A stretch of 64,000 nucleotides of DNA from Cyanidioschyzon merolae (Eukaryota), in assembly GCA_000091205.1 (NCBI GenBank), contig AP006497.2; one strand, given 5' to 3'. The notes beneath the pieces are model-generated. The model ran no database searches, was not told where the DNA came from, and saw only the letters and a program-made list of their open reading frames with translations. Below, one piece after another: positions 15,345 to 58,510 of the stretch. Position 1 is the first letter of the stretch; the number at the start of each line of letters is the position of its first letter. The position numbers were made by a program, and so were the translations under genes.

Positions 15345-15700
15345 CAGAGCGAAAAGTTCTCTTCTAGCCTACCATCGAGCGAAGAAGAACAAATGACGAA
15401 GGAGACGAGGGAGAGTGGGACCTTGGCCAGAAAAAATGTGTATCTGACAGGACGGTGACGAGACGTAGTGTCACAGAGGGCACGAGTTCGAGGACTACTT
15501 GCATTCGTGAGTTCAACCAGAGGACACGAACGCAGGGACTCTGTGAACCAAGACTTGAACGCCGCCATGAATATCCGGAGACCTGCGGCGCTGAAGACAA
15601 GACCCGAAGCGCTGATGCCATTCAACTCTGTGGGGCACCCTCTCACACTCGAATATTGCACGGAGATGCTGAAGCCGATGGCGGGCGGCCGGTCGGAAAC
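15345..15700 (+). pseudogene. Copy A: a truncated 'X + RuvC-III tail' fragment of the TnpB/Fanzor-like family
   Basis: The plus strand reads VNQDLNAAMNIRRPAALKTRPEALMPFNSVGHPLTLEY at ~15543..15660. It is preceded by segment X (~15345..15540), which is shared at the nucleotide level with 19083..19280 and 36584..36780. The GGCGGCCGGTCGGAAACGG motif lies at ~15690. Upstream frameshifts are present. Confidence 0.55.
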
Positions 15701-17462: not shown

Positions 17463-18479
17463 TTAAGTCCGACGATGACGTTTGGACACTGGAACTTCGT
17501 CCTCGTCTTCGTCCTCGTCAACGGCATCCTCGTCGTCGTCGTCGTCGTCGGCTTCCTCTTCCTCTTCGTCTTCATCAAAGTCTCCGCCCCCGTCCTCATC
17601 GTCATCGAACTCATTATCCTCATCATCCTCTTCTTCACTAAACTCATCGTCCTCGTCTTCTTCGTCGTAGACATAGTCGCCCCCGTCATCATCTTCATCG
17701 TCCTCGTCATCAACGTCGCCGGCGAGGTAGTGCCCGCCCGAAGGGCCTGACGCCTCATCTTCCGAATCCGCCCCATTATTGTCATCTTCCTCCTCTTCGT
17801 CCTCGTCATAGTCACCCTCTTCGTCCTCTTCTCCATCCTCCGCGTCACCACGGTCGTCTTCCTCGTCTTCCTCGTCCAGATCCGCCGGCCTTGTTTTACC
17901 ATACGCCTGTCGAAGCACTGCGTCCTCCTGTTGAATCTCTTCCTCGTCCTCTTCGTATTCCTCATCGTTCTCGTCTTCCTCTGCCCCCTCACCTTCAGCC
18001 TCTTCGTCGTCCTCAACGTCCTCGCCATTTTCATCCTTACCATCTAGCACCATAAGTCCGCGAATCTCGCGGAACATAAACGCGCGATAGTCTTTCAGGT
18101 TGCTCACCGGGCATCCGTAGCAGTCGACGACCCTAAGGTGCAAACAACCGCGCAACGGCTTCAGCGAATCGAGCGTGCGAATAGCGTTTCCAGAAAGATT
18201 CAATACCTCCAAGCGAGGAGCGTGTGTAGGCAAAAGCTCCAGCCCGGCACCAGTTAGGCGGTTGTCGCTGAGCTCCAGCCTCCGCAGCGCCGGAAGCATC
18301 GGAAACCCCGGGGTCAACGAAGTCAATCCGCATCCGTTCATGGACAGAACCTCCAGCGAATCGAAGTTCTCGAGCCCACTTGGATGCGATTGTTTGCAAC
18401 GGTTGTCCAGCACTAACTCCTTGACCTGTCGAGGGAGTTGCTCCCCGATGGCCTTCTTGATTGCCGCCTCCATCTCCAA
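17463..18479 (-). CDS. ANP32 (acidic leucine-rich nuclear phosphoprotein 32) family protein, with an N-terminal LRR cap and a ~190-aa D/E tail
   Basis: The sequence VKELVLDNRCKQ...LSMNGCGLTSL...LPALRRLELSDNRLTGAGLELL...LEVLNLSGNAIRTLDSLKPL...CPVSNLKDYRAFMFREIRGLMVLDG is colinear with ANP32A/B. It is followed by an extreme acidic low-complexity tail ending KRHRRT, which is NLS-like. Confidence 0.8.
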   Translation of the reverse strand: MEMEAAIKKAIGEQLPRQVKELVLDNRCKQSHPSGLENFDSLEVLSMNGCGLTSLTPGFPMLPALRRLELSDNRLTGAGLELLPTHAPRLEVLNLSGNAIRTLDSLKPLRGCLHLRVVDCYGCPVSNLKDYRAFMFREIRGLMVLDGKDENGEDVEDDEEAEGEGAEEDENDEEYEEDEEEIQQEDAVLRQAYGKTRPADLDEEDEEDDRGDAEDGEEDEEGDYDEDEEEEDDNNGADSEDEASGPSGGHYLAGDVDDEDDEDDDGGDYVYDEEDEDDEFSEEEDDEDNEFDDDEDGGGDFDEDEEEEEADDDDDDEDAVDEDEDEDEVPVSKRHRRT

Positions 18480-18900: not shown

Positions 18901-19059
18901 GCGTGACACCGAGGTGTCCGCTATGGTGTTTCACTTCAATTGTGTTCCAATCGCCGCTGCGTGCTATGGAATGCTTTTTCGTGGTTTATGGCGGATGCGT
19001 TCAAAGTGAGTTTCTTTGAAGAAATGAAAAATTCACGGGGAAGTGCGTGGACATGGAAA

Positions 19060-19331
19060 TCGGGGGTTCTGGCGGGCCGTCATCACTGAGTTCTACGAAA
19101 ACGATAAGAATCCTCTTCTCGCCGACCATCGAACGAAGAAGCGCAAGTGACGACGAAGAAGAGGCGAGGTAGGCAAGAAAAGGTGTTTGCCCGACGGGAC
19201 GATGACGAGTGTGTCGTGGTACGGGGCCACGAGTTCGATGAATCCTTACATTGGAGTGTGTGTGTGTGTGTGCAGTCAACGGCAATGCACGAAAGGAGTT
19301 CGTGAACCGAGCCCTCAATATCATGCGCTGC
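19060..19331 (+). pseudogene. Copy B: segment X plus a 60-bp RuvC-III piece that abuts repeat R1 in inverted orientation (chimeric or nested)
   Basis: The plus strand reads VNGNARKEFVNRALNIMRCAV at ~19283..19331 and runs directly into R1. A (TG)9 microsatellite lies at 19256..19272. Segment X is homologous to 15349.. and 36584.. Confidence 0.5.
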
Positions 19332-20950
19332 GCTGTCAAGACTCCGCACTTTTTTATATCGTCAGGACTGATCTGGCACTTTTCCATCTCGAGCGTCTGA
19401 AGTGTACACCCCAGCTCGTGGTCTATGCAGGACGTCCGGAACTCGTCTATCGGGAATGTGACAAAACGCCTTGCGCACTCCTTGTAAGCGCGTGTCGGTG
19501 AGGCTGGAGTGCACCCTGTTTTCGACGCCCAGCGCCCTGCTCCCTATGCTGCTACGAGGCTTTGACGCTTGTCCTCCTTGAGGGTGCTCAGCGCATGAAA
19601 AAAGTTCCCAAATGCACGCCATTCCGCACAGTACAAGTTCATATGCGGACGATGGCATGGACATTGGCTTTTGAACGCTCTCTCCGCCGCTGCTTCCATT
19701 GCCGCTCTCTTAGCCCCGAGTGAACATGTGCCGGTCTCTCTTGTCCTTGCAGTTCCCGAGTCAGCAGTCGAGGGATGTCGGTGGCAGCGTTCAAGTTCCG
19801 ATTTCGCCACTTCCCGCCCGTGGTAACGCGTCCCGCGCGTAGGGCCAAGTTGCGGTCCGCACGTCGTTCCCCACGTTCATCTTCTGTGCACATACAGCTT
19901 CGGTGTGTCTTTCGCTGCGCTGACACCGGACTGTGATCAGACGTTCGCATATTCGTCTGCCGCATCTCTCACGCGACCGAGCGCCGCCCTGTGGCATGCG
20001 AAGGCTTGCTTCAGCGCTCGATGCATGTCCGGGACTGGCGTAGAAGGCGCTCGTCGAATCCATTCTTTGTCTGCATACCCGATGCCGTGACGAACGATGA
20101 CGGGCTGGTTCCGGGCGATTCCCTTTGCGAGTGCGCTGTATGGTGCAAAAGCAAGCATACGCAGTCCCGTTTGAGAAGGGATTCGTGGAATGCGATATTG
20201 GCCTTGGTGAGGCAGGCACCGGAATGATAACACTCATAGGAGAACCAGTCGAGTGATTTCGATCCGTCCACGCTGTTCTACAGCGAAGCGGCGATCCAGT
20301 CTGCACCAGAGGCGATCGCTGCGACGACTATAGTCAAGGACTTCATTCCATGCAACCAGAAGAGGCGAGTGCATCTGGGCGCGAATCCCCGTGTAACGTA
20401 CGATGCAGCTGTCGAATTCCCTGTCTCGCGGATGACCACAGGGACACAAGGATTTGTCTTTCGAAAGGATTCGATCATTTGATACGAGAAGCACGATGAG
20501 GCTTGGGCGTGAGCGTGTGAACACGTCGTCAAGGAGCGACGTCGGGCTCCGTGCCGCGCCAGTCCAGTGGCGAGCATTGCTGTGCCCACGGGTTGCCTTG
20601 AAACAGAAAGATCGAAAACATGAAGCATGCATGATTTGCGCATGCTATACACAAGGAACGCGATAGCGGTAGAGGCTTGTGCCTACAAATTGGTTCATAA
20701 AATCGGCTATTTTACAAACCTTTGTTTGGCGGCGTCGAGAAGCATCTCGATCCCGGTGACGTATCGAGTTACAGGGGCAACGCGTCGAAAGTGGCACGCA
20801 GTAACGCCGACCGGGAATCCGGAAACTGCGCATGAATTTCCAAGCCCTGATTGTTGCACTTTGAGTGTCTAGACCATATATCTAGGACAATGCCGGGAAA
20901 AAAAATCGAAAGGCAGGGCCAGCGCGTGCAGTGCAGTATCCCGTATTCAT
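19332..20950 (-). mobile_element. R1: a ~1.6 kb repeat carrying a decayed TnpB/Fanzor-like coding region; it is copy 1 of a direct-repeat pair
   Basis: It is about 97-98% identical to 39027..40645, with a constant offset of 19,695 bp. The minus strand encodes fragments in three frames, including WRAFGNFFHALSTLKEDKRQ and the zinc finger ...FRTSC..HELGC...CQISPDDIKKCG at its low-coordinate end. Multiple frameshifts leave no intact ORF. Confidence 0.7.
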
Positions 20951-22673
20951 CCAACGGTGGCACAGCGCTGCGGGAATCGGGCACCATTGAGGCGGGGCGT
21001 GTGTTGCGATGAATTCTATAATCAAAAGAACGTTCTGTTCTGAGCACGGGACCGAACGCTCGATGGATATCATCACCCTGGAAAGCGTCCATTATGCCTC
21101 GCCTTACGTTCAGGTACCAGCCGCCACTAGGCATACTTTTCCTCAGAGATACTAGTCGTCATATGTGTTCAACACTGTTCCGAATCTTCCGAAAATGCCG
21201 GGCAAATTGCGCTGGCTGTGGAGCGCGCTTCGAATGTAGTGCACCAGTGCCGAGAGCGCTTCGACGGCTCGTGCCATCGCGTCTCTGGTACGCCAGGCGA
21301 AGACGAGCCAACGTTGTTGCTGGTGTAAAACTTCTGAAAGGTGCCATGGATTTGGCATTCGCAGGCAGGAGTTGCACAGGCGACACCGACAGCGTACTAT
21401 CAAAAAAATAGGCGCATGGCATGTCGTAGCATAGGGAGCCTTCGTCTCATGAGTGTGTACTGGAAACACGAGTGGCTGCCGCACAGAAGCTGCGGATCGC
21501 GCCGAGAAGCAGCTGGGCATGCGCACAACCCGAGTAATGGGGCACACGCGAGCGTCTCGACGCGACTCCAGTGCTCCAGAATGCCTGGAAGCGTGTGCCG
21601 CGGCCTAGGCTGCCAGGCAAGCCTCGTTCGAGCGGCACCGTCCGGCGCGAGTCGAGTGCGACCTCCCCTCCCACGAGTCAGGCATCCGGGTGCCGGACGC
21701 AAATGATCCTCAGTCGGTATAGCGCGTGCGCATATTGTAGCGACGTGCTCCGATATGGCCGCAACACGTAGGCCACTGGCGCAACTTTTTCGCAGCCCGA
21801 CATACTCTAAACTGCCCAGAGGCTTCTCACTGCGCTTCATGCCGCAAAGCGTTTCCAGTCAGTACTTAGGGCGGTGTCGAGCGCCCTGCTCGACGCAGCG
21901 TTCTCGCGCGCCGCATCAAGTCGTTCTGCAATTCATCATCATTGTTCCGCCTCCGTGACTCGATTCAGTCGCATGCCCTCTAGACTTGCCATCCCGAGTC
22001 GCTGCCCGCGCATTGCGTCCACGAAAGCTCGTCTGTGTAGACAACAAGCGAATCGTTCCAGTCACAACGCTCGTCCCCGTGGACGCGATACAGGATACCC
22101 GCGTCGCCACACGCAGCGGTTACTCGAAGCGTCCCGCTCCTGCCGCTGATACGAGTGCTGCGGCCTCAGCGTCGATATGCCTGCGCAGCGCATGTTTCCG
22201 GCCTGCTTTTTTTTCATTGACAAAACGTTTACTTAGGCCAGCGTTCTCCGATTACGCGCATTTTTCTTTTCTTACTTTTTTCTGTGAGTGTTTTTTTCCC
22301 CGCCCTGCTGCGGAGGCGCGGCGCCCGCGCGATCGATGAACGCATCCCCGCGGATCGTTGCAAAAGCGCGACACGTCACAGCGCCGCATGCGTGCGTGCG
22401 TGCCGGCGGCGGCGGCGGCGGGAACAGCACTGTGGCATGCGTGCGTGCCGCGAACGCTCATTCAACAGTAGGCTCTCAGCGCAGCGTTCTGTTTTTGGGC
22501 GAATACAGGGAGCACCGGCAGTGTTCATCGAGAAGGAGTGTACTACGCGCCTGTGCGAGCGGTGACCGGGCGAAGGACCATTCGGTAGGTATCACTTGGT
22601 ACTCGTTCGAGAACGCCAGAGTTTTCTGCAGAAGCTTTTCGGATTTCGGTAAGAGGAGCCAGCGCGCCGAGGA

Positions 22674-36306: not shown

Positions 36307-36569
36307 GTCGCTACCCGCCCGGATCCGGTACCGATGCGGTGCGATGCGTTGCCGCGCGCGCGCGGGCGCTGCGGCGCGCCATCCGTTTGCGCTTACGATT
36401 ATAGAGTTTCACCTGAACTGTGTTCCACGTTCAGATCCGTGTCAACGAATGCCTGTTCGCGGTTTATTGCAGGTGCTTTCTACGTGCGTTGATTTTCAAA
36501 AATGCAATATTCAAAGGAAAAGTATGGACATGCAAGTCGGGATCATGGAGGTGAGATGTTGCCTGATTC

Positions 36570-36910
36570 GACAAAAAGAAACACGATAAGATTCCTCTTA
36601 TTGCCGAGTATCGGACGAAGAAACGCGAGTGACGAAGGCGAAGTGGAAGAAGCGTGTTGATAGGCGAGGAGAGCTGTTTGCCCGACGAGGCTGTGACGTG
36701 ACCTTGGTGGCACAGAGGGCACGAGTCCTTATGCACCCTTGCGTTGATGACTTGTACCAGAGACAATACACGCTGGGAGTTCATGAATCGAGACTTCAAC
36801 GCTGCGCCATTAAAAACAGACGATGTGCGGTGCTGAAGAGGCGACCCGCGTACCCGACGCGAGCCAACTTTGTGGGCCAGCCTCTCACACTCGATGTGTG
36901 CAACGATAAA
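36570..36910 (+). pseudogene. Copy C: a truncated 'X + RuvC-III tail' fragment, frameshifted
   Basis: The plus strand reads EFMNRDFNAAPLKTDDVRC, then shifts frame to IKNRRCAVLKRRPAYPTRANFVGQPLTLDVCNDKL. Segment X lies at 36584..36780. The copy sits in the promoter region of the minus-strand hydrolase gene, which starts at 36306. Confidence 0.55.
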
Positions 36911-37591
36911 CTGAACTCACTAGTCCTGAAGCTTTACGTATATCGGCGTTATACAGCAGTTCGCTACATGTCGGAAGCGTCGGATGCCACGTGGTTCCTA
37001 AATTCGCATGAAAGTTCACTACAGCAACGCCGTACCACACACCATGAGTGATGCTCGTCGTCTTTGCAAAGACGCTTCCGTGCATTGTCGCTGGTATAGG
37101 GGCAGTCAGCTTGTCAAATAGCGTCGTGCGGGTACCCTGAATCAACTGGAAACCAAGCATCCAATCGATTCAAGGTGTTTCTCAGTCACAGTTGGGCGTC
37201 AAGTTGTCCTGATCATGCAGCGACAGAGGCGGCAGCCGCTCAGCACCCCCTGAGTCGGAGTTCCACGTCTGCAATCCGCCATTGTGCTCGGCTGAAGAAG
37301 CGTATCGACAAACGTGCAACAGGCATGAGCCACAGATCGGCCGCTGAGCTACATGTATCCGGACGCTCGTTTCCGCCTGCAGAGCCATCACGTATGCGCA
37401 TGAGAAAGTTCGCACCCGATGCATACATCTCGAAGCAAACCGCATGCTGCCGGCTGTGGATAAAGTGCTCTATTCAACGGACAAGTCGAACGCGAACGCC
37501 CTCCAAGTGGCGGCACCACTGAATCGGACAATGTTTACAACCTGCCATGCCTTGCGGTATGCTGCTAACGCTCATTCCAGGCGCTCGAGGT

Positions 37592-38668
37592 CTAGTTCAA
37601 GGGTTTCGTCGCAAGCCACACCCGATGCCGCGGCGTATTGTTTTCGGTCTGCACGTCAGTGAATCCACTGATTGTCAGTAAACTGACCATATCGACGCGT
37701 TCATACTCAGAAAAATACGGTTCAGTGCTGCGGAATATGGCTGCTCCGACCGGGGGTATCGAACGGAACGCTTCGCTGTGCGGATCAGAATCCATCATCG
37801 CCAACATGCCTCCGGGGCGAAGCACTCGATACGCCTCTACCACGAGACGCTCGGTCGCTGCCATGGGCAGCTCATGTGTCACCAGGGAACATAACACGAG
37901 GTCCACCGAATCCGCTTTCTGAGGGAGGTTCTCGACCGCGGCGTGCTTAAAACGCACCTGAATCGATGACGGGTAGCTGCGCTCCTCTGCACGTAACTCG
38001 GCAACCGCAAGCATGAACGTCGATAAATCGATTCCTGTTATGTCGAGCGGGCGTTCCGGATACCGTGCTAGCCATGCATCGATGAAGCGCATCGTGCTGA
38101 GTCCAGTCGACGCACCCAGGTCGAGTGCTACCAGTGGACGTCCCATGGGCACGAGCAGCTGTTCCAGACGAGGCCAGACTCGGTCCAGGAAGGTGTCGCG
38201 TAGCAGGCGGTCACCTTGCGTGGGCGGTGCTTCCGGGAAAAGGCGTGCATGGACCGCCAGAGCCGACGACTCGACTTCCATGGCAGGAATCCAGCCAAGG
38301 TTCCCTTCCGGATACGTATGGAACGGTGCACGTACGTAGTAGTCTGGATATACGAGGTCGCGTTCGACAAGTCGCGCTCGTTTCTGTTCGAGGGTGTCCC
38401 ACTTGAGCCGCAGCTCACGAACGTTCTCTCGCCAGGGCACGCCGATCTCCTCCGCTCTCTTGACGACACCTGCACGGCCAATTCGCTTCAGTAACCAAGC
38501 AGTGGGCGGGAAAGCTAAAATCCCTTGTACTATCAGAGCCGGCAGTTTGCCCTCGGGGTTTCGCGTCACTGGAGTCGTCGCCGAAGCGTGAATCCATCGA
38601 CAAGCTCGGTATCGAGTGCACTTCTGAGACGGCAGTCTCACGCATGGAACAAAGTTTAACTGCGTCAT
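37592..38668 (-). CDS. Class I SAM-dependent methyltransferase (Methyltransf_11-like)
   Basis: Motif I is VALDLGASTGLSTMRF. Downstream blocks are DLVLCSLVTHELP and LRPGGMLAMMD. The likely start is MTQLNF at 38668. The longer ORF, 37592..39505, reads through in frame from a Fanzor/TnpB-like remnant upstream and is judged chimeric. Confidence 0.55.
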   Translation of the reverse strand: MTQLNFVPCVRLPSQKCTRYRACRWIHASATTPVTRNPEGKLPALIVQGILAFPPTAWLLKRIGRAGVVKRAEEIGVPWRENVRELRLKWDTLEQKRARLVERDLVYPDYYVRAPFHTYPEGNLGWIPAMEVESSALAVHARLFPEAPPTQGDRLLRDTFLDRVWPRLEQLLVPMGRPLVALDLGASTGLSTMRFIDAWLARYPERPLDITGIDLSTFMLAVAELRAEERSYPSSIQVRFKHAAVENLPQKADSVDLVLCSLVTHELPMAATERLVVEAYRVLRPGGMLAMMDSDPHSEAFRSIPPVGAAIFRSTEPYFSEYERVDMVSLLTISGFTDVQTENNTPRHRVWLATKPLN

Positions 38669-38744
38669 GAGGCTCGCTATCAAACGCCGTTCTAAAGTCG
38701 AACGACGTCGGACGTGTATCGTAGTGGCGGTGAACGTGCCTTCG

Positions 38745-39026
38745 ACCAGAGGTCTTCGACTGTCGTGCAGACGCCTTCCGGTCTTTTCGGACCGGCCACC
38801 TACTCCTGATTCCAACTTTTTCTCATATAATTCCACTTTGAGCGATTGTCCAACAAAGTTCTCTCTTGTCCACTCTGGAGGTCTTTTCTCCAGCACCGCA
38901 CATCTCCTGACATTGACAGCAGCGTTGAAGTCTCGGTTGACGAATTCCATACGTTTCTTGCCGCCGTTGGTTGTGCTCACCAGCGCATGTAGTGCTCGAA
39001 CTTTCGTCCTGCTTCCCATTTGCTCT
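38745..39026 (-). pseudogene. TnpB/Fanzor-like C-terminal segment (RuvC-III motif DFNAAVNV) plus a conserved 3' tail
   Basis: GGKKRMEFVNRDFNAAVNVRRCAVL matches the TnpB/Cas12 RuvC-III consensus (AD.NAA.NI) with the catalytic Asp present. It is preceded by a CxxC...CxxCG zinc finger and the FVTFPIDEFRTSC block (compare TnpB VxVdPxYTSqxCsxCG). A 3' motif CAGGAGTAGGTGGCCGGTCCGAAAAG at ~38745..38770 is shared with copies at ~55440 and ~15690. Confidence 0.65.
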
Positions 39027-40645
39027 TCTGTCAAGACTCCGCACTTTTTTATATCGTCAGGACTGATCTGGCAATTTTCCATCTCGAGCGTCTGAAGTGT
39101 ACACCCCAGCTCGTGGTCTATGCAGGACGTCCGGAACTCGTCTATCGGGAATGTGACAAAACGCCTTGCGCACTCCTTGTACGCGCGTGTCGGTGAGGCT
39201 GGAGTGCACCCTGTTTTCGACGCCCAGCGCCCTGCTCCGTATGCTGGTACGAGCCTTTGACGCTTGTCCTCCTTGAGGGTGCTCAGCGCATGAAAAAAGT
39301 TCCCAAATGCACGCCATTCCGCACAGTACAAGTTCATACGCGGACGATGGCATGGACCTTGGCTTTTGCACGCTCTCTCCGCCACTGCTTCCATTGCCGC
39401 TCTCTTAGCCCCGAGTGAACATGTGCCGGTCTCTCTTGTCCTTGCAGTTCCCGAGTCAGCAGTCGAGGGATGTCGATGGCAGCGTTCAAGTTCCGATTTC
39501 GCCACTTCCCGCCCTTGGTAACGCGTCCCGCGCGTAGGGCCAAGTTGCGGTCCGCACGTCGTTCCCCACGTTCATCTTCTGTGCACATACAGCTTCGGTG
39601 TGTCTTTCGCTGCGCTGACACCGGACTATGATCAGACGTTCGCATATTCGTCTGCCGCATCTCTCACGCGACCGAGCGCCGCCCTGTGGCATGCGAAGGC
39701 TTGCTTCAGCGCTCGATGCATGTCCGGGACTGGCGTAGAAGGCGCTCGTCGAATCCATTCTTTGTCTGCATACCGGATGCCGTGACGAACGATGACGGGC
39801 TGCTTCCGGGCGATTCCCTTTGCGAGTGCGCTGTATGGTGCAAAAGCAAGCATACGCTGTCCCGTTTGAGAAGGGATTCGTGGAATGCGATATTGGCCGT
39901 GGTGAAGCAGGCACCGGAACGATAACACTCATAGGAGAACCAGTCAAGTGATTTCGATCCGTCCACGCTGTTCTACAGCGAAGCGGCGATCCAGTCTGCA
40001 CCAGAGGCGATCGCTGCGACGACTATAGTCAGGGACTTCATTCCATGCAACCAGAAGAGGCGAGTGCATCTGGGCGCGAATCCCCGTGTAACGTACGATG
40101 CAGCTGTCGAATTCCCTGTCTCGCGGATGACCACAGGGACACAAGGATTTGTCTTTCGAAAGGATTCGATCATTTGATACGAGAAGCACGATGAGGCTTG
40201 GGCGTGAGCGTGTGAACACGTCGTCAAGGAGCGACGTCGGGCTCCGTGCCGCGCCAGTCCAGTGGCGAGCATTGCTGTGCCCACGGGTTGCCTTGAAACA
40301 GAAAGATCGAAAACATGAAGCATGCATGATTTGCGCATGCTGTACACAAGGAATGCGATAGCGGTAGAGGCTTGTGCCTACAAATTGGTTCATAAAATCG
40401 GCTATTTTACAAACCTTTGTTTGGCGGCGTCGAGAAGCATCTCGATCCCGGCGACGTATCGAGTTACAGGGGCAACGCGTCGAAAGTGGCACGCAGTAAC
40501 GCCGACCGGGAATCCGGAAACCGCGCATGAATTCCCAAGCCCTGATTGTTGCACTTTGAGTGTCTAGACCATATATCTAGGAAAATGCCGGGGAATAAAA
40601 TCGAAAGGCAGGGCCAGCGTGTGCAGTGCAGTATCCCATTCCAAT
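39027..40645 (-). mobile_element. R2: copy 2 of the 1.6 kb direct repeat; it is continuous with a RuvC-III-encoding tail at 38745..39026
   Basis: The ORFs at 39057..39371, 39486..40001 and 39973..40347 are near-identical to those at 19362..19664, 19791..20306 and 20278..20652. The minus strand across the boundary reads ...EFRTSCIDHELGCTLQTLEMENCQISPDDIKKCGVLTEEQMGSRTKVRALHALVSTTNGGKKRMEFVNRDFNAAVNVRRCAVLEKRPPEWTRENFVGQSL. Confidence 0.7.
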
Positions 40646-41945
40646 CTAACGCTCGGCTAGCATAAACCGCTGTTCACGAAACGGCATCCATGCAATAAGA
40701 GGAGTCAGCGTACGCTCCGCAAGTCGAAATTGGACTGGGTATTCGGCAGCCTCGCAGGCGCGTTCATCGCTCTGGGCGACGAGTTCCAGAACTGGAGAAG
40801 TCTCTCTGCTCCTTCGGTGCCTCCGCGTGCAACCGAGACTTGGCCAAACAAGTGACAGGTAGCAGGCGCCCGTCACGCAATCCCCAGCATCTTCGACCGT
40901 ATCATCCGTACCGGGAATTCGGATGCTCAACACGGCCAGGCGACGATGCGCGTCCGTTTCGGAGCAGGCGAAGCGGTGCGCTCCAACGCCGGCACCCGTG
41001 GCGCCTCGCATCTCTTCGGCGAAGCGACTCGAACGCGTCAACCCCAAGATATTTCTCTAAGACTTGGCAAAGCTATTGAATTGCCGTGACGCACACAACG
41101 AAGCGCTACCCCGATTGCACCCTGCTTTTATGGTACACGGTCGATGCACCGAGCCAGATTGCCATCGGTAACCGGAAATGAAATCGATGCGCTCATCCAG
41201 ACGTTTTTGCGTATCTGAACCCTGGACCCGTATTCCCCGTAACACTGCACGCTTGATCGATCCCGCAACGCTCAGAGTGCAACGCCCATGGTACACGTCA
41301 AGCAGAGACAACACGATTTTCATCGATCCTTGGAGGCATTCGTTCAAGGCAGTTGCGTCATTTTGCATGCCGAGCGCTCGCTTGGCCGAGATCCGCGCAC
41401 CTCTGTGCGCGGCGTCCATGCGCCGGTACCCGTGTCCGTGCGCGGCTGAATGGCGCAGCGATCGCCGTCGCGCCGCCGCCACGCATCGCTGTCCGGTGTC
41501 GCATCCGTGATCGCGGCATCGCATCGGATGCGTGCAGCGCATGCACCCCGCGCGCCCAGCACGGATCGCGCAACCAAAGCATCGACGTCACGCGCCCTGA
41601 GCGCAGCGCCCGCGGACGCTTGAGGGCGTCGCGTGCATTCACGACGCTCGCGGGATCGGAATCTACTTCCGTGCATTTCGCAGCTTTGAGTAAACTTCAA
41701 GACACAGAAGCGCAGCTTATTTCGATCTCAAGTTTCATCTAGCGTTCGCTTACGTGTCGCAAAAGTGGAGAAAGCAATATGCTGGTTCTGCCTGCGCTCT
41801 GCAGCGTACCAGGCACCGCGTCACTCTGATCCGCAGTTGTTGACCTGCGCGCCCTCATCGACACACAGACGTGGTATCCAGGACGAAGCGCGTCCGCTGG
41901 TCTCGTTGTGATCCGGCAAATGCGCCCACGCCCGTGGCGCAAACA

Positions 41946-43106
41946 CTACATGGAACTTTTCTCTGGGTTGCTGCTGGCGTTCGTCTCGATTTTCTGAACG
42001 CGATCGCGGGCGTATTCGAGCATTCTGCGAGTGTACCTGGAAGCAAACACCTCAAAGTAATAGTTACTTCCGTTCCACACGACGATGAGACCGACAAATG
42101 CCAACACGATTTCGTGCATCCATTTGTAACGCCAGAACAGCGCCGTAGGCAAACAAGTCACCCCAGTGAAAATCAGCTGCCAAAAAGCGAGTGCCAAATT
42201 CTGGTATCGCTCGCCGAAGATATTCAGCATCCGGGAGACTGCCGAGCCCGAGTGACGTGTGAGCCATCGCAGGCTTGTGATCAATTCAGGGTTTCGATCG
42301 AGCTTTCGACGAGAGATAACCAGAATCTTTGCAAGATACAAGGTTTGCCAGATTAGAAAGATCACCAGCGGCACTGCCACCGTAAACGCGCGACGTCCTA
42401 ACGCGATACAGTCTGCTTCGTGGCTGCAGATACCGATCCGTCGCGAGATGATCAAGTCTGAATGCCAACGAGCATTGTACGTCACTAGTGGGGGAAATAT
42501 ATGGATAAATACGGACGTCATCTTATCGAGCGAATGAAAAACCAGCGCATTGCGCCACGCCACCATCGCCCAGAGCACCGGTCCGTTCGCCGAGGCAAAC
42601 AGGGCCACGAACATGACCTGTCGCCAGGCTTGCGTCCGCGGCCAGCCAAAATAGAAAGCTACCAGTAGTGCTTGCACAAAGTAACAATAGTCGTACATGA
42701 AATAATGCTGAGCAGACTTGCGGTATGAATAATAGCGGAGAATAAGCAGAGGCGTCAGCTGGTACAGATACCACTGCCATAGACGCGCCGGCTGGCGTAG
42801 AATAACGTATTCCGTGAAGAGCACGTTGAGCAGACCCAAGACAAACGAAAGTTTGTCTCGCAAACGAATGACCTCTGGAGTGCGAACGCGCCTTTCGATG
42901 GCTCGCCGCCGCTCCACGAGCCGATGTTTGGTGTTACGGATCTTGTCATCTAGATTAGCAAGGCTACCAAGTGTAAAAATATCGGACAAAGAAAGGCTGA
43001 GCAGGTCAGGCTCGTAGTACGCTTCCGAGTCGGGAAAAGCGGAGGAGTCCGTCTCGTCGAAGTGGTCAACGCTCGCACTGCCCAACGCACGCCCACCGTC
43101 GTCCAT
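41946..43106 (-). CDS. DUF2838/GPC1-like multipass membrane protein (glycerophosphocholine acyltransferase family), tentative
   Basis: This is a 386-aa ORF with ~8 hydrophobic segments. The blocks YYSYRKSAQHYFMYDYCYFVQ and FHSLDKMTSVFIHIFPPLVTYNARW resemble the conserved core of the GPC1/DUF2838 family. Confidence 0.45.
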   Translation of the reverse strand: MDDGGRALGSASVDHFDETDSSAFPDSEAYYEPDLLSLSLSDIFTLGSLANLDDKIRNTKHRLVERRRAIERRVRTPEVIRLRDKLSFVLGLLNVLFTEYVILRQPARLWQWYLYQLTPLLILRYYSYRKSAQHYFMYDYCYFVQALLVAFYFGWPRTQAWRQVMFVALFASANGPVLWAMVAWRNALVFHSLDKMTSVFIHIFPPLVTYNARWHSDLIISRRIGICSHEADCIALGRRAFTVAVPLVIFLIWQTLYLAKILVISRRKLDRNPELITSLRWLTRHSGSAVSRMLNIFGERYQNLALAFWQLIFTGVTCLPTALFWRYKWMHEIVLAFVGLIVVWNGSNYYFEVFASRYTRRMLEYARDRVQKIETNASSNPEKSSM

Positions 43107-43454: not shown

Positions 43455-44130
43455 AAAGTTTAGCTTCTAGGCGGAAGGTCCCGCGATCTGGACAAGTCTG
43501 TTAGGCTGATGCTTCATGCGCTCCCGCAATAGCTGTTGCTCTAGCGAGACCTGAGCAACTCGTCCGCAAACGCAGTTCATTCTGGGACTCAGAGCGGATA
43601 CACTGCGTTTCGATGTCGTCACGGTCGCAGTGGACTTCTTGTATATTGCTTCGCGCTGCAGCAGGCAATAGGTCCGTCTGCGCGATTGGCTCGTTCCCGG
43701 AATGCTCATGAATCCTGATTCCGTAGCAGGTGAATGTAGGCAAAAGGTCCGTCTGCGCGATTGGCTCGTTCCCGGAATGCTCATGAATCCTGATTCCGTA
43801 GCAAGTGAATGCAGGCAAAAGGTCCGTCTGCGCGATTGGCTCGTTCCCGGAATGCTCATGAATCCTGATTCCGTAGCAGGTGAACCACGCCTCGGGCCGG
43901 CACCCTTTGCAGTATGGCAAAAACGTCCTACCTCCGCGATGTATCGTCATCAGCGGTATGAGCGATAAAGCGGACGCTCACGACAGGTACTCGGCGCACG
44001 ATAGAACATACGAAACGACCAGCATATCCGTGAGGAAATATGGGTAAAGGAACTTGGAGCTAGGGTGCAGCACCATGACCAACGCTCTTCTGATTACCAT
44101 TATCCATCCGGCAACCTGTCATCCATGCTC
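43455..44130. repeat. Dispersed ~650 bp non-coding repeat (copy 1) with an internal 75-bp unit triplicated in tandem at 43671..43895
   Basis: It is homologous to 57975..58510. Shared strings include AGGCGGAAGGTCCCGCGA, ACGCAGTT(C/T)ATTCTGGGAC, GTCCGTCTGCGCG...GGCACC(C/T)TT(T/C)G(C/T)AGTATGGCAAAAACGTCCT, GCACACGATAGAAC.TAC.AA.CGACCAGC.TATCCG and ATTACCATTA(T/C)CCATC. Three 75-bp tandem units differ at 2-3 positions. Confidence 0.75.
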
Positions 44131-55047: not shown

Positions 55048-55439
55048 GCCACAAGGAGCGTTCTCAACAAAAGCGAGAGCCGCCTACCTCGACAACTACT
55101 TTCAGATAGATAGACAGACAGCCAAACACAGACAAACCTCCAAGTCGAGTCTTTCCCCGTACCGATATCGTGGCACCCGAGCAGAAAGCGCACCCTCGGG
55201 TAACTTGTCGTCTTCGTGCAAGCGAAGCAACACACTGTTCGTTCGGGCTGTTGCCCGCTGCATCAGGGAGCGCGTCGATCGATGCGCGATCACCGGCCGC
55301 ACCGGCACGCCAGTCAATCATCGATGAAAAGCTGCGTAACCCGTGCCCGCTGTGGTGGTGGTGGTGGTACCGAGCGACGCACCGCCGCCTCCGCCGCCAC
55401 ACTCTGTAGAATACGTATCCACCGAGCCGATCGGCGGAC

Positions 55440-57400
55440 GCTTCGCCGGCTTTTCGGACCGGCAACCAACTACTCCTGCGTGCAACTTCAGGTCGTACTA
55501 TTCGACCTGGAGAGGTTGTCCCAGAAAGTGGGGTCGTGTCAGCTTCGGAGGTCTCGTCTCCTTCAGTGCACGTCTCCTAATATTGATTGCAGCGTTAAAG
55601 TTTCGGTTCACGAATTCCATACGTTTCTTGGCATTGGTTGGTATCACCGACGCAAGTAGACCTCGAACTCGCAACCTCCACGCCATCAGGTGCTCTGGCA
55701 GCGCTCCGTACTTTGCTATATCCTCAGGGCTCCGCTGGCACTTTTCCATCTCGGCACTCTGAAGTGTACACCTCAGCTCGTGGTGTAGATAGGAGTTTCG
55801 GTTCCCATCTATTGGCAACGTGACAAGACGGTGTGCGCACTCCTTGTACGTTCTTGTCGTTGGAGCGGGTGTACACACTTTTTTAGACGCCCGGCGCCCT
55901 GCGACGTATGATGTTACGAGCCTTTGGCTCCTGTCCTCATTGAGGGCGCTCAACTGGTTGAAAAAGTTGGCGAATGCACGCTTTTTTCCCACTGTACAAG
56001 CTCATACGCAAGCGATTCATCCGGGGCTTTGTATATTCTTTGCACAGCGCTTCCCAATGAGCAACGCGAACTTTTATGAACTCCCGAATGACCTGAAAGT
56101 CCGCTCCATGGCTCGTCACCTCGCTCATAGCTTCCAGATGCTCGTTCACTCCTTCATTTTACGTCTCAATTTTCTTCCTTGCATTCATTATTCCCGATTC
56201 TCGGTAATATCTAGCTTCTGAGAGCTTCAACAGAGGCATGTTTTCCTGGCGCAAGCCGCCGTCAATACCATCTTCCCCACGCTCGGATACCGCAATAGGT
56301 ATAATATTCATGTTCCCGGGGCCCGCGCCAACGACATAGTCCTTACCCTGCACCGCATGCGTCGCAGGATCCGCCTCCTTTTTTTTCATGCCTCGCCGAC
56401 GGCGAAGCATGAAGATGCAATGGGACGATCCACTTTCAAGCGCCGATCGTGTACACACACGGCTGCTCCATCGGCTTCGATCATCTCAGTAAATAACTTT
56501 TGTTTGCTCGTTTTCAGACGTTTGAAATCGAACATATTCACCCAATTACGTCTCCCGGTTTTCGCCCGTAAACTCCTTGCTGCTTAGATCGAACTCCGGA
56601 TAGATCTCCTTCATTTTGCTGTAAAGTACGTAGGGGCCAACTGTCACAAAATGTGACTTGATGTTGCATAGCGGAACGACATTGAAGCGCTTACCCATTC
56701 GGGCAGCGTTCCGTTTCTCTGACTCTTCATTTTTCCCCTCACACGCTGCTCCATCTCCGCCTTGCGTTCGAGTTCTCGATTCAGGAATACGAAATAGTGC
56801 AGGATGAGCGGATAAAAACTTTTTTTCATCTCTGATACCTTTTCTGCTGGATTTGACAAGCCCCAAGACTACACAGTGCTCGTGAACAGCCATACGAATG
56901 ACAGAAGCTTCATTCTTGCCCCTGCGTGATGCCTTCTTGTCGACGAATTCGATCCCCTGTCCATTCTGGCGATCGTTCGTGATGCCACTGATGATGGCCC
57001 GTATCCCCTGGCGGGAGAGGCCCGGGCACAGTGTAAAAATAGCCCGTATGATGAAACGTTCGAGGTTCACGATCATATGGTTCTTCCGGTGCTTGAGGAA
57101 CTTGATTGCCCCGTAGGTGTAAATATCACCATCATCCCTGCATCGAGTACCGTCGAAGCGGAATTCGGCGTAATTCTCGTGGAGGGCGTGCACTCGCTCA
57201 TTTTTCGTCGACGTTTCCCCTGTGCCAACCATCAGGTGGCGAATAAACGTCTTGCTGAAAAATCCCCCCGGGACCTCGACCATTTTGATGCCCATCACGT
57301 CCCGAAACATCTTCTTCATCAAATACATAAGCCCTGACGGAGCCTTCATAATACTCATGGAGTACGACTCGACACGGTTTCTGAGTGCATCTCACAACTT
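55440..57400 (-). mobile_element. Copy E: a diverged, most complete (~1.95 kb) member of the TnpB/Fanzor-like element family, with lower GC in its 5' two-thirds
   Basis: Four consecutive minus-strand ORF segments are 56546..57358 (270 aa), 56159..56458, 55937..56149 and 55498..55992. Together they give ~620 aa when frameshifts or short gaps are allowed. The C-terminal segment aligns at ~50% identity with copy D: RAFANFFNQLSALNEDRSQRLV ... YKECAHRLVTLPIDGNRNSY ... CQRSPEDIAKYG ... KKRMEFVNRNFNAAINIRRRALKETRPPKLTRPHFLGQPLQVE. A candidate RuvC-I-like block is KDYVVGAGPGNMNIIPIAVSERGEDGIDGG at ~56250..56330. The 3' flank 55440..55497 carries the conserved CAGGAGTAGTTGGTTGCCGGTCCGAAAAG motif. Confidence 0.55.
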
Positions 57401-57974: not shown

Positions 57975-58510
57975 CTTAAAGGCGGAAGGTCCCGCGAACC
58001 GCACGAATCTCCCAGGCTTGCGCCTCATGCGCCTCCCAGTGGCGGGTGCTAGAGTGAGATCAAAGCAAATCGTACGAAACGCAGTTTATTCTGGGACCAG
58101 GGGCGGGCGGCTTGCTTCTGGGCGTCGCCCTTGTCGTGGAGGACTCCCCGGAAATCGCTTCTCGTTGCCGCTGATAGGATGTCCGTCTGCGCAGTTTGCT
58201 AGTTCCCGACATGCTAGTGAATTCCGACTCCGTATCAGGTGGAGCATTCCTCGAGCCGGCACCTTTCGTAGTATGGCAAAAACGTCCTGTCTCCGTGATG
58301 CATCGGCATCAGCGGTTGAGGCGCTGTTGCGGATGCAGTAATGCAGGTAATCGGCACACGATAGAACGTACAAACCGACCAGCGTATCCGAAAGGAAGTA
58401 TAGGTCAAGGAACTTGAGGGTGAGGTGCAGCAGCATGATGGACGCTTTTCCAATTACCATTACCCATCGCGCAATAAGGGATCCATGGTCAATGCCAACG
58501 TTTTGTCATC
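57975..58510. repeat. Dispersed ~650 bp repeat (copy 2, single 75-bp unit)
   Basis: See 43455..44130. The offset is ~14.5 kb and the orientation is the same. This copy overlaps the plus-strand ORF 57598..58341, which is therefore probably spurious. Confidence 0.75.

Follow-up and report, generated by a model that had tools for sequence, protein, structure and literature searches.

A decayed Fanzor1 remnant in frame with a methyltransferase gene of Cyanidioschyzon merolae: very probably a chimeric gene model, not a fusion protein

An open frame and its annotation

Does Cyanidioschyzon merolae possess a protein in which a transposon-derived domain is joined to a methyltransferase, or has an ordinary gene been extended, on paper, through an adjacent transposon relic? 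The question is raised by the minus strand of a 64,000-nucleotide stretch of contig AP006497.2 (hereafter the window), where a chimeric frame of 637 codons runs without interruption from a GTG at 39505 to 37592. A preliminary description of this DNA had reported the frame and its start inside a repeat, R2, and had offered two alternatives: an annotation hazard, the real gene starting at MTQLNF (38668), or the capture of a transposon-derived N-terminal exon by the host gene. The frame proved real, and its start does lie within R2 (39028..40651, 1.6 kb), which is 97.9% identical to positions 19333-20956 (R1); the R1 copy carries a stop in the same frame (LVAA*GAG). Our data argue strongly for considering this frame as the fortuitous read-through of a decayed Fanzor1 remnant into an ordinary methyltransferase gene, rather than as a gene in its own right; that the fusion exists as a protein is very improbable.

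In-frame ATGs are located at 39394 (600 aa), 39337 (581 aa) and 38668 (MTQLNF, 358 aa), in addition to several internal ones. A longest-ORF rule selects the ATG at 39394 (RefSeq) or at 39337 (JGI), and the single-protein call that had been predicted for automated annotation is already in the databases. The 600-aa reference protein of C. merolae 10D, which holds the fusion, is identical to the version starting at the first of these ATGs (BAM81538.1 / XP_005537574.1 / UniProt M1VJL8), and JGI pipelines call both the 581- and the 600-aa versions for this locus. The reference annotation and the other gene-finders wrongly join the Fanzor remnant to the methyltransferase. This corresponds exactly to the known class of chimeric gene models in which a real gene is prolonged as far as the most distal ATG, across a pseudogene or repeat lying upstream.

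A C-terminal Fanzor1 remnant

The first ~230 residues of the frame had been described as TnpB-like. Real Fanzor homology was found there, including RuvC-III, but the Fanzor frame covers aa 57-254 and RuvC-I is missing. As delimited by tblastn and by a family profile, the remnant (38744..39337, minus strand) is the decayed C-terminal third of a Fanzor1 protein, still in its original frame, with RuvC-II (IDEFRTS, ORF aa 121-127, 39125-39145) and RuvC-III (NRDFNAAVNV, ORF aa 190-199, 38909-38938) on the same strand, and devoid of the WED/REC domains. Its relatives are 580-740 aa long and are matched at their C-terminal ends, the remnant corresponding to the last ~170-200 residues of relatives of 600-700 aa. 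In tblastn searches with full-length relatives, the remnant was aligned with aa 523-688 of P0257 and aa 161-332 of P0173 (E-values of 1.5e-33 and 8.5e-73 were obtained), and no similarity to the first ~520 residues of the relatives was found within 38600-42000.

The link between the remnant and Fanzor1 is indirect and passes through a family profile (A4) built on 41 full-length sequences related to the C. merolae family, which matched solved Fanzor1 structures (9cf0, E=4e-18; 8gkh, E=2.9e-9; 9cer, E=3.5e-4). Searches of the PDB with the remnant alone or with a shallow family profile (A3) returned nothing relevant, and Pfam searches with the same two queries gave no match. Pfam and NCBIfam searches with the N-terminal 279 aa and with family members gave no significant match either, PF07282 (Cas12f1-like TNB) staying below threshold (E=0.19 to 0.002). 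Relative to the solved Fanzor1 proteins (Parasitella parasitica, Spizellomyces punctatus and Guillardia theta Fz1), the RuvC-I DPG, RuvC-II DEFRTS and RuvC-III NRDxNAAxNI motifs all align in the family profile, whereas the remnant keeps RuvC-II and RuvC-III alone and drifts neutrally. The invariant catalytic residues of A4 (D421, E592 and D658) form a full triad in the family and not in the remnant; in longer family members RuvC-I reads VGADPGNTNI. Having lost RuvC-I and all N-terminal domains, the remnant cannot fold as a RuvC nuclease. Judged from its sequence, it is a non-functional fragment of a Fanzor1 family member and cannot act as a nuclease. An AlphaFold2 model of P0173, based on a 30-sequence alignment, was unusable (mean pLDDT of 41).

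A single Fanzor family, CMe-1A, is reported from C. merolae (Bao & Jurka 2013, PMC3627910); it is an old family of ~150 copies, ~80% identical to the consensus and without terminal inverted repeats. The assignment of the remnant to CMe-1A rests on this being the sole Fanzor family described in the organism. Organism and multi-copy character agree; the present copy differs in that it is truncated at the 5' side, the C-terminal third being left, and in that its stop codon is lost.

Other pieces of such elements are scattered over the window, which contains at least six Fanzor fragments with 60-75% mutual identity; 470 Fanzor-family proteins were counted in hot-spring metagenomes. A second and apparently older C-terminal scrap lies in another frame just upstream of the remnant (39334..39660, minus strand; GKWRNRNLNAAIDIPRLL), its match being weak (E=3e-5 against a set of seven sequences), and codons 1-56 of the open frame are an out-of-frame reading of it. 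On the plus strand, an inverted C-terminal fragment (WEFMNRDFNAA...NFVGQPLTLD; 36771..36925) is present in the methyltransferase 3' region, and on either side of the methyltransferase gene lies an element 3' end, the two facing each other.

The element tail and the lost stop codon

In most copies of the element the Fanzor frame is closed by TAG (GTC TAG GGC). At 38741..38743 (minus strand) this codon is now GAA, codon 255 of the open frame, and because of this replacement the frame runs past the Fanzor end. Homology to other copies identified the following sequence as the non-coding 3' tail of the element (38685..38740, minus strand), read as codons 256-274 (GTFTATTIHVRRRSTLERR), codons 256-279 being assigned as a whole to the tail. 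The 'linker' between remnant and methyltransferase is the transposon's own 3' tail and not host sequence. The terminal hairpin of this CMe-1A-type element, CGTTCGACTTTAGAACGGCG (38685..38704, minus strand), ends the tail and has a unique match in the window; it is absent from the other window copies, which are truncated or diverged.

The element 3' end and the TAG stop were defined from 20 independent copies, across which conservation ends after the hairpin and TT(N)GATGGTG. Homology to one independent copy (L012) extends to 38683, and at least six copies have the same tail, some of them in shifted frames. The exact hairpin 20-mer was recovered from 55 metagenome stretches representing ~20 distinct loci, with conserved element sequence in front of it in every case. 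The consulted parts of PMC3627910 do not describe the 3' terminus defined in this way, hairpin CGTTCGACTTT(A/C)GAACGGCG followed by a few bases. Only 7-15 nt (38669..38684) separate the element end from the methyltransferase ATG, the boundary being approximate to within a few bases. At the 3' end, where a Fanzor1 element would encode its guide (omega) RNA, 20 loci share conserved tail sequence containing hairpins; however, the predicted fold of 38669-38960 was no better than that of shuffled sequences (z=-0.35) and an Rfam scan of the tail matched no family.

Only ~84 of the 279 codons upstream of MTQLNF (56 out of frame and 28 of tail) are open without a coding history. Given a family of ~150 copies, the existence of such a frame is an unremarkable accident.

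The methyltransferase gene, its orthologues and synteny

The true methyltransferase gene, as indicated by Pfam, orthologues and polymorphism, extends over 37592..38668 (minus strand; 358 aa plus stop codon) and starts with MTQLNF. The complete class I methyltransferase that had been recognised in the C-terminal part of the frame was recovered with its quoted motifs, VALDLGASTG (ORF aa 459-468, 38102-38131) and LRPGGMLAMMD (aa 562-572). Between ORF aa 441 and 620 (37646..38185, minus strand), Methyltransf_11/25/12/31 and Ubie_methyltran were above their Pfam gathering thresholds, with scores of 59.6 bits for PF08241 (cut-off 21.2), 59.3 for PF13649 (27) and 40.1 for PF01209 (20.1); SAM-binding motif I, LDLGASTG, is at aa 461-468. 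For specific enzymes (UbiE/MenG, MpqE, ArsM, BioC and others), all NCBIfam matches were far under their cut-offs, the best being CpaM (45.8 against 180). The product is an enzyme of the class I SAM-dependent methyltransferases, of cyanobacterial type, and its nearest homologues are entries from cyanobacteria that bear this class name and no enzyme name. An identical 358-aa product was called on four independent contigs.

Cyanobacterial homologues start ~40 aa further in than MTQLNF. The additional N-terminal stretch delimited by this alignment (38549..38668, minus strand) is basic and S/T-rich, with a single acidic residue and with a Phe that is conserved close to its N-terminus (MTQLNFVP / MPLALAFVP / MNSMLAFVA). 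Since these are established features of red-algal transit peptides, it may be regarded as a putative plastid transit peptide.

A comparison with orthologues free of the insertion, as proposed in the preliminary description, revealed no Fanzor-derived extension. The orthologues of Cyanidiococcus yangmingshanensis (74% identity) and of a second relative (80%) are both 361 aa long and begin at the MTQLNF position, and in Cyanidiococcus an in-frame stop is found six codons upstream of the methyltransferase start. The orthologous loci are syntenic, in the order DAD / methyltransferase / hydrolase / Pelota, and neither of them (Cyanidiococcus L014, and L015) contains Fanzor sequence. By synteny with these loci, a repeat- and element-derived stretch of ~3.3 kb (38683..41958) fills the place of the DAD gene and of the DAD/methyltransferase intergenic region in C. 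merolae. The possibility that the methyltransferase is a cargo carried between the inverted element ends (38.8 kb, minus strand, and 36.8 kb, plus strand) was rejected because the methyltransferase-hydrolase-Pelota synteny is ancestral in the Fanzor-free relatives.

Wild alleles and selection

The frame across the junction was conserved neither between species nor between alleles. Strain 10D has it open, as do at least three wild alleles: L002, L010 and, over the part that it covers, L006. It is broken in the L008 allele by a TGA at 38851-38849, with no ATG from there to MTQLNF, and in the L011 allele by a 1-bp insertion at 39298 that shifts the frame within the remnant. Upstream of 38885, the L009 allele bears another element copy. 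All three retain an intact 358-aa methyltransferase.

Polymorphism was also distributed unequally between both parts of the frame. The remnant showed 15 replacement, one nonsense and four silent changes, as compared with four replacement and 10 silent changes in the methyltransferase (16:4 versus 4:10, Fisher P=0.0046, for a small number of sites). Selection is relaxed on the remnant, where the ratio looks neutral and no purifying selection was detected, in contrast to purifying selection on the methyltransferase.

Transcript-like contigs and alternative explanations

In four contigs from four samples (L001, L003, L005 and L004), the match to the window begins at 38732, 38724, 38717 and 38707, respectively, and continues downward, each contig being joined at that point to unrelated sequence. 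This cluster (38707..38732, minus strand) lies 39-64 nt upstream of the methyltransferase ATG, inside the element tail, and the next AUG downstream is that at 38668. L005 ends in non-templated A's at 37520, 72 nt past the stop codon, and L001 has 24 non-templated A's at 36912, inside the antisense Fanzor fragment. These sites may be considered as proximal and distal poly(A) sites (minus strand). The scatter of the junctions, together with the non-templated poly(A), suggests that the four contigs derive from mRNA and that their junctions correspond to transcription starts. L001 runs beyond its poly(A) into foreign sequence, indicating end-to-end chimerism, and the foreign 5' pieces on all four were assumed to result from reverse-transcriptase template switching or assembler tip extension. 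The preliminary description had considered that an mRNA starting downstream of 38745 would support the non-fusion model, and 5' ends at 38707-38732, if read correctly, point in this direction. An initial view of L001 as an 'empty-site allele' was dropped, as three further contigs had differing junctions and partners, all within the element tail.

Two improbable explanations have to be weighed against this picture. One is mixed expression, in which a main short mRNA would be accompanied by read-through transcripts over the remnant, yielding a minor long isoform or a uORF-like brake on translation. The short collinear contigs L008, L010 and L011, which span both remnant and gene, may be genomic or may be read-through transcripts. 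If they are RNA-derived, low-level long transcripts across the remnant could exist, and L003 and L009, which run past both poly(A) sites, would likewise represent read-through if they were RNA. However, the contigs in question have neither a poly(A) tail nor a defined 5' end and break inside repeats, like genomic assemblies; moreover, the L008 allele is unable to make the fusion and the frame bears no sign of selection.

The other explanation, which we consider equally doubtful, is that the four short contigs are genomic variants with other upstream neighbours, either alleles devoid of the remnant or rearrangements, the junctions at 38707-38732 being recombination breakpoints. This would account for the foreign 5' sequence on four contigs out of four, that of L001 including the 3' end of another ORF, and for the extension of L003 to 36412, beyond both poly(A) sites. 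It is less easily reconciled with four partners and four junctions within 25 nt, all inside the tail rather than at the element boundary, with the non-templated A-runs at 36912 and 37520, which point to mRNA, or with the long genomic contigs from wild populations (L002 and L006), which show the arrangement of the window. If true, it would further oppose a conserved fusion.

The captured exon of the preliminary description, that is, a domesticated fusion with a functional Fanzor-derived N-terminal domain translated from the ATG at 39394 or 39337, is the least credible of all, even though 279 upstream codons are open in 10D and several wild alleles and the reference annotation models the gene in this way, since it is contradicted by orthologues without extension at Fanzor-free loci, by nonsense and frameshift alleles, by the neutral-looking ratio in the remnant, by transcript-like 5' ends downstream of it, by its inability to adopt a RuvC nuclease fold, by a first segment of 56 codons that is an out-of-frame scrap, and by a putative transit peptide that would end up ~280 residues inside the protein.

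SETMAR, the primate fusion of a SET methyltransferase and a mariner transposase, is spliced, is expressed from one mRNA and is under purifying selection. As in SETMAR, a transposon-derived ORF and a methyltransferase share one reading frame at the present locus. Here, by contrast, the transposon part is upstream, unconserved and broken in wild alleles, and appears to be outside the coding region of the mRNA.

Proposed history of the locus

Orthologues, synteny, wild alleles, selection and contig 5' ends support the first alternative, in which the fused model is an annotation hazard and the gene really begins at MTQLNF (38668). According to this reading, a 5'-truncated, decayed Fanzor1 copy of the CMe-1A family sits head-to-tail directly upstream of an ordinary nuclear methyltransferase gene of cyanobacterial type, whose product is probably plastid-targeted. 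Three accidents unite both frames: mutation of the Fanzor TAG to GAA (38743-38741), a non-coding element tail of ~60 nt that happens to contain no stop in the Fanzor frame, and the location of its end, in phase, 7-15 nt ahead of the methyltransferase ATG. Transcription would start at ~38707-38732 within the tail, translation at the first AUG (38668, MTQLNF...) to give a 358-aa precursor, and polyadenylation would occur at 37520 or 36912, while the Fanzor part would be left untranslated and drift as a pseudogene.

Consequences for annotation and for Fanzor1 tails

The locus represents ordinary transposon decay beside a gene, together with an annotation artefact. XP_005537574.1 / M1VJL8 begins with ~240 residues of transposon debris, which mislead targeting-peptide prediction by hiding a likely plastid transit peptide, domain-architecture surveys by creating a spurious 'TnpB/Fanzor-methyltransferase' fusion, and also orthology and structure prediction. 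The gene model should be cut back to start at 38668. To date, two such read-through chimeras are known, the methyltransferase and P0260, in which a Fanzor remnant reads through into Peptidase_S26 (signal peptidase).

The position of the 5' ends recalls transposon-derived promoters and 5' UTRs, such as LTR-driven ones, as they would lie inside the terminal ~50 nt of the element; in comparison with LTR-driven transcripts, promoter activity of the tail is putative here, all 5' ends having been read from metatranscriptome-like contigs. Element sequence now stands in place of the ancestral upstream region of the methyltransferase, its divergent DAD neighbour included. Of 19 independent copies whose tail is intact, nine have an ORF of 120 aa or more that starts within 100 nt on the same strand, as compared with 13% of random positions (P=2.8e-4). 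On the basis of the 5' ends mapping in the tail, of the loss of the ancestral promoter region and DAD, and of these nine tails abutting ORFs, it may tentatively be proposed that the CMe-1A Fanzor1 3' tail, the expected guide-RNA region, doubles as an outward promoter or transcription start, and that, in a genome as compact as this one, positions immediately 5' of host start codons are favoured for the insertion or the survival of such elements. The occurrence of Fanzor1 tails directly before host genes, to which they may supply transcription starts, is perhaps the sole part of this locus worth more work.

Reading frame and existing annotation

The minus strand is open for 637 codons, without a stop, from 39505 to 37592, beginning with GTG. 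In frame with it are ATGs at 39394 (600 aa), at 39337 (581 aa) and at 38668 (MTQLNF, 358 aa), as well as some at other internal sites. Its start falls within a 1.6-kb repeat, whose copies R2 (39028-40651) and R1 (19333-20956) share 97.9% identity; both the open frame and its beginning in R2 were as the preliminary description had them. Exact-sequence look-up identified the 600-aa version as BAM81538.1 / XP_005537574.1 / UniProt M1VJL8, on a 902,900-bp chromosome of C. merolae 10D, with the title 'similar to bacterial putative methyl transferase', and JGI pipelines had called versions of 581, 600, 507, 496, 414 and 358 aa on environmental contigs. Since a fused 600-aa entry stands in the databases, the predicted mis-annotation of both parts as a single protein is already a fact.

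The methyltransferase gene and its orthologues

The 637-codon ORF is very probably a read-through artefact and the real gene the 358-aa frame at 37592-38668 (minus strand), starting with MTQLNF. A class I SAM methyltransferase domain, far over the Pfam gathering thresholds, was located at ORF aa 441-620, in the downstream part where it had been recognized from the sequence alone. The orthologue of Cyanidiococcus yangmingshanensis (74% identity) and that of a second relative (80%) each have 361 aa; their start codons align with MTQLNF, one of the two starts considered initially, and an N-terminal ...(A/N)FV... motif is common to all three proteins. Cyanobacterial and green-algal homologues begin about 40 aa further in. 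The extension that they lack is basic and S/T-rich and, by what is established for transit peptides in red algae, probably serves as a plastid transit peptide.

The orthologous loci were syntenic (YbaB, DUF2838, DAD, methyltransferase, hydrolase, Pelota) and no Fanzor sequence was found in them; in Cyanidiococcus, a stop lies 6 codons upstream of the methyltransferase start. DAD (PF02109) is divergent and upstream of the methyltransferase in Cyanidiococcus (L014, 5351-5713) and in the second relative. In C. merolae, about 3.3 kb of repeat-derived DNA (38683-41958) replaces DAD and the intergenic region, and the DAD gene was found neither here nor anywhere else in the 64-kb window.

Wild alleles

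Environmental contigs 99% identical to the window allowed alleles to be compared. One (L008) carries a nonsense TGA at 38851-38849 in the remnant, with no ATG between it and MTQLNF, another (L011) a 1-bp insertion at 39298, and in a third (L009) another element copy takes the place of the sequence upstream of 38885; the methyltransferase was intact in every disrupted allele. In the remnant, the pooled polymorphic sites comprised 15 replacement changes, 1 nonsense and 4 silent; for the methyltransferase the counts were 4 replacement and 10 silent (Fisher P=0.0046).

Transcript-like contigs

Four JGI samples each yielded a short contig (L001, L003, L004, L005) that encodes exactly the 358-aa protein. 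Their match to the window starts only at 38732, 38724, 38717 or 38707 and runs downward, preceded in each by a different unrelated sequence (L001 1-514, L003 1-311, L004 1-109, L005 1-218) that meets the matching part precisely where the mRNA would begin. In L001 a run of 24 non-templated A's stands at 36912, with foreign sequence beyond it, and L005 terminates with non-templated A's at 37520. The pattern resembles systematic end-to-end chimerism of assemblies, L001 also running past its poly(A). On the simplest reading, these contigs would be mRNA-derived assemblies whose ends were extended via chimeric reads. Transcription would thus start 39-64 nt before the first AUG, probably within the element tail, and two poly(A) sites would be used. 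JGI poly-A metatranscriptomes exist from a C. merolae-dominated Yellowstone site (PMC11662350). An mRNA start downstream of 38745 had been proposed as the discriminating observation, and the putative 5' ends, at 38707-38732, lie downstream of that position. The alternative that the host gene captured a genuine transposon-derived exon is not supported; these putative ends, the 361-aa orthologues and the nonsense and frameshift alleles speak against it.

The methyltransferase 3' region contains an inverted Fanzor C-terminal fragment (36771-36925, plus strand), within which, in antisense, the putative distal poly(A) site at 36912 is located; the fragment is accompanied by a repeat at 36412-36894 similar to 15359-15652 and 18938-19253.

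The Fanzor remnant

The first 279 aa of the ORF had no match in Pfam. Within the window the C-terminal Fanzor module is present in six or more copies (60-75% identity), and it has 470 relatives in hot-spring metagenomes, none with a Pfam domain; the longer members displayed VGADPGNTNI (RuvC-I), DEFRTS (RuvC-II) and NRDFNAAINIRR (RuvC-III). Exhaustive profile search raised 1125 relatives, many of 600-740 aa and matching at their C-termini. All three catalytic residues were invariant in a profile of 41 full-length relatives, which matched the solved Fanzor1 proteins of Parasitella (E=4e-18), Spizellomyces (E=2.9e-9) and Guillardia (E=3.5e-4). Bao & Jurka (PMC3627910) give a single Fanzor1 family for C. 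merolae, CMe-1A, to which the remnant probably belongs. It numbers about 150 copies, with identity to the consensus of about 80%, is about 3 kb long and lacks terminal inverted repeats.

The TnpB-like character previously assigned to the first ~230 aa was real as Fanzor homology, but the Fanzor frame is limited to aa 57-254, aligned to aa 523-688 and 161-332 of the relatives P0257 and P0173, respectively. RuvC-I and every N-terminal domain are missing, and codons 1-56 run out of frame across another, weakly matching RuvC-III scrap (GKWRNRNLNAAIDIPRLL). In the R1 paralogue, a stop is present in the frame of the ORF. A 108-aa ORF in another frame (39334-39660, minus strand; twin at 19639-19965) carries a second RuvC-III-like motif, RNRNLNAAIDI; the R1/R2 repeat is therefore itself made up of two or more Fanzor 3' fragments, nested or in tandem.

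Elsewhere in the window, a fuller, broken Fanzor1 copy (55438-57358, minus strand) extends over three ORFs (56546..57358, 56159..56458, 55498..55992), with a mutated RuvC-I (GAGPGNMN versus GADPGNTN) and a stop after ...LQVE. Three tandem 75-bp repeats (43661-43884, 96-99% identical), with a single related copy plus flanks 14.4 kb off (58170-58336, 74-78% identity), are another repeat family. The 24-copy 'direct repeat' family at 17470-18050 is due to the very long acidic D/E-rich tail of an LRR protein gene (17463-18479, minus strand).

Element 3' end and origin of the frame

An independent element copy that lies in front of a helicase gene (L012) remains homologous to the window as far as 38683. 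The tail (38685-38740 in the window) is also translated in at least six family proteins, in some cases in a shifted frame, and they diverge immediately after it. A 20-mer hairpin (38685-38704, minus strand; CGTTCGACTTT(A/C)GAACGGCG), conserved across element copies, was found in 55 metagenome stretches representing about 20 distinct loci, in which conservation persists through the hairpin and TT(N)GATGGTG and then collapses. These comparisons place the element 3' end 7-15 nt before the ATG at 38668. Most copies read GTC TAG GGC where the window reads GTC GAA GGC (codon 255, 38743-38741), indicating that the Fanzor stop was lost. With the stop lost and the element end so mapped, the 'linker' (codons 256-279) consists of the element's non-coding tail followed by a few bases of host DNA. 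The read-through arose from loss of the Fanzor stop codon, a 60-nt element tail open in frame and, by chance, a tail in phase with the methyltransferase ATG.

Tails in front of host genes

A second read-through chimera was found in the metagenome protein P0260 (433 aa), in which a Fanzor C-terminal remnant (aa 55-207) continues into a signal-peptidase domain (Peptidase_S26, E=2.3e-18). Of 19 independent intact tails among loci L016-L070, 9 are followed within 100 nt by the start of an ORF of 120 aa or more on the same strand, versus 13% of random positions (P=2.8e-4); the arrangement permitting such artefacts is therefore common in this family. This adjacency, the only aspect of the locus that retains some interest, may reflect insertion preference, survivorship or outward promoter activity of the tail.
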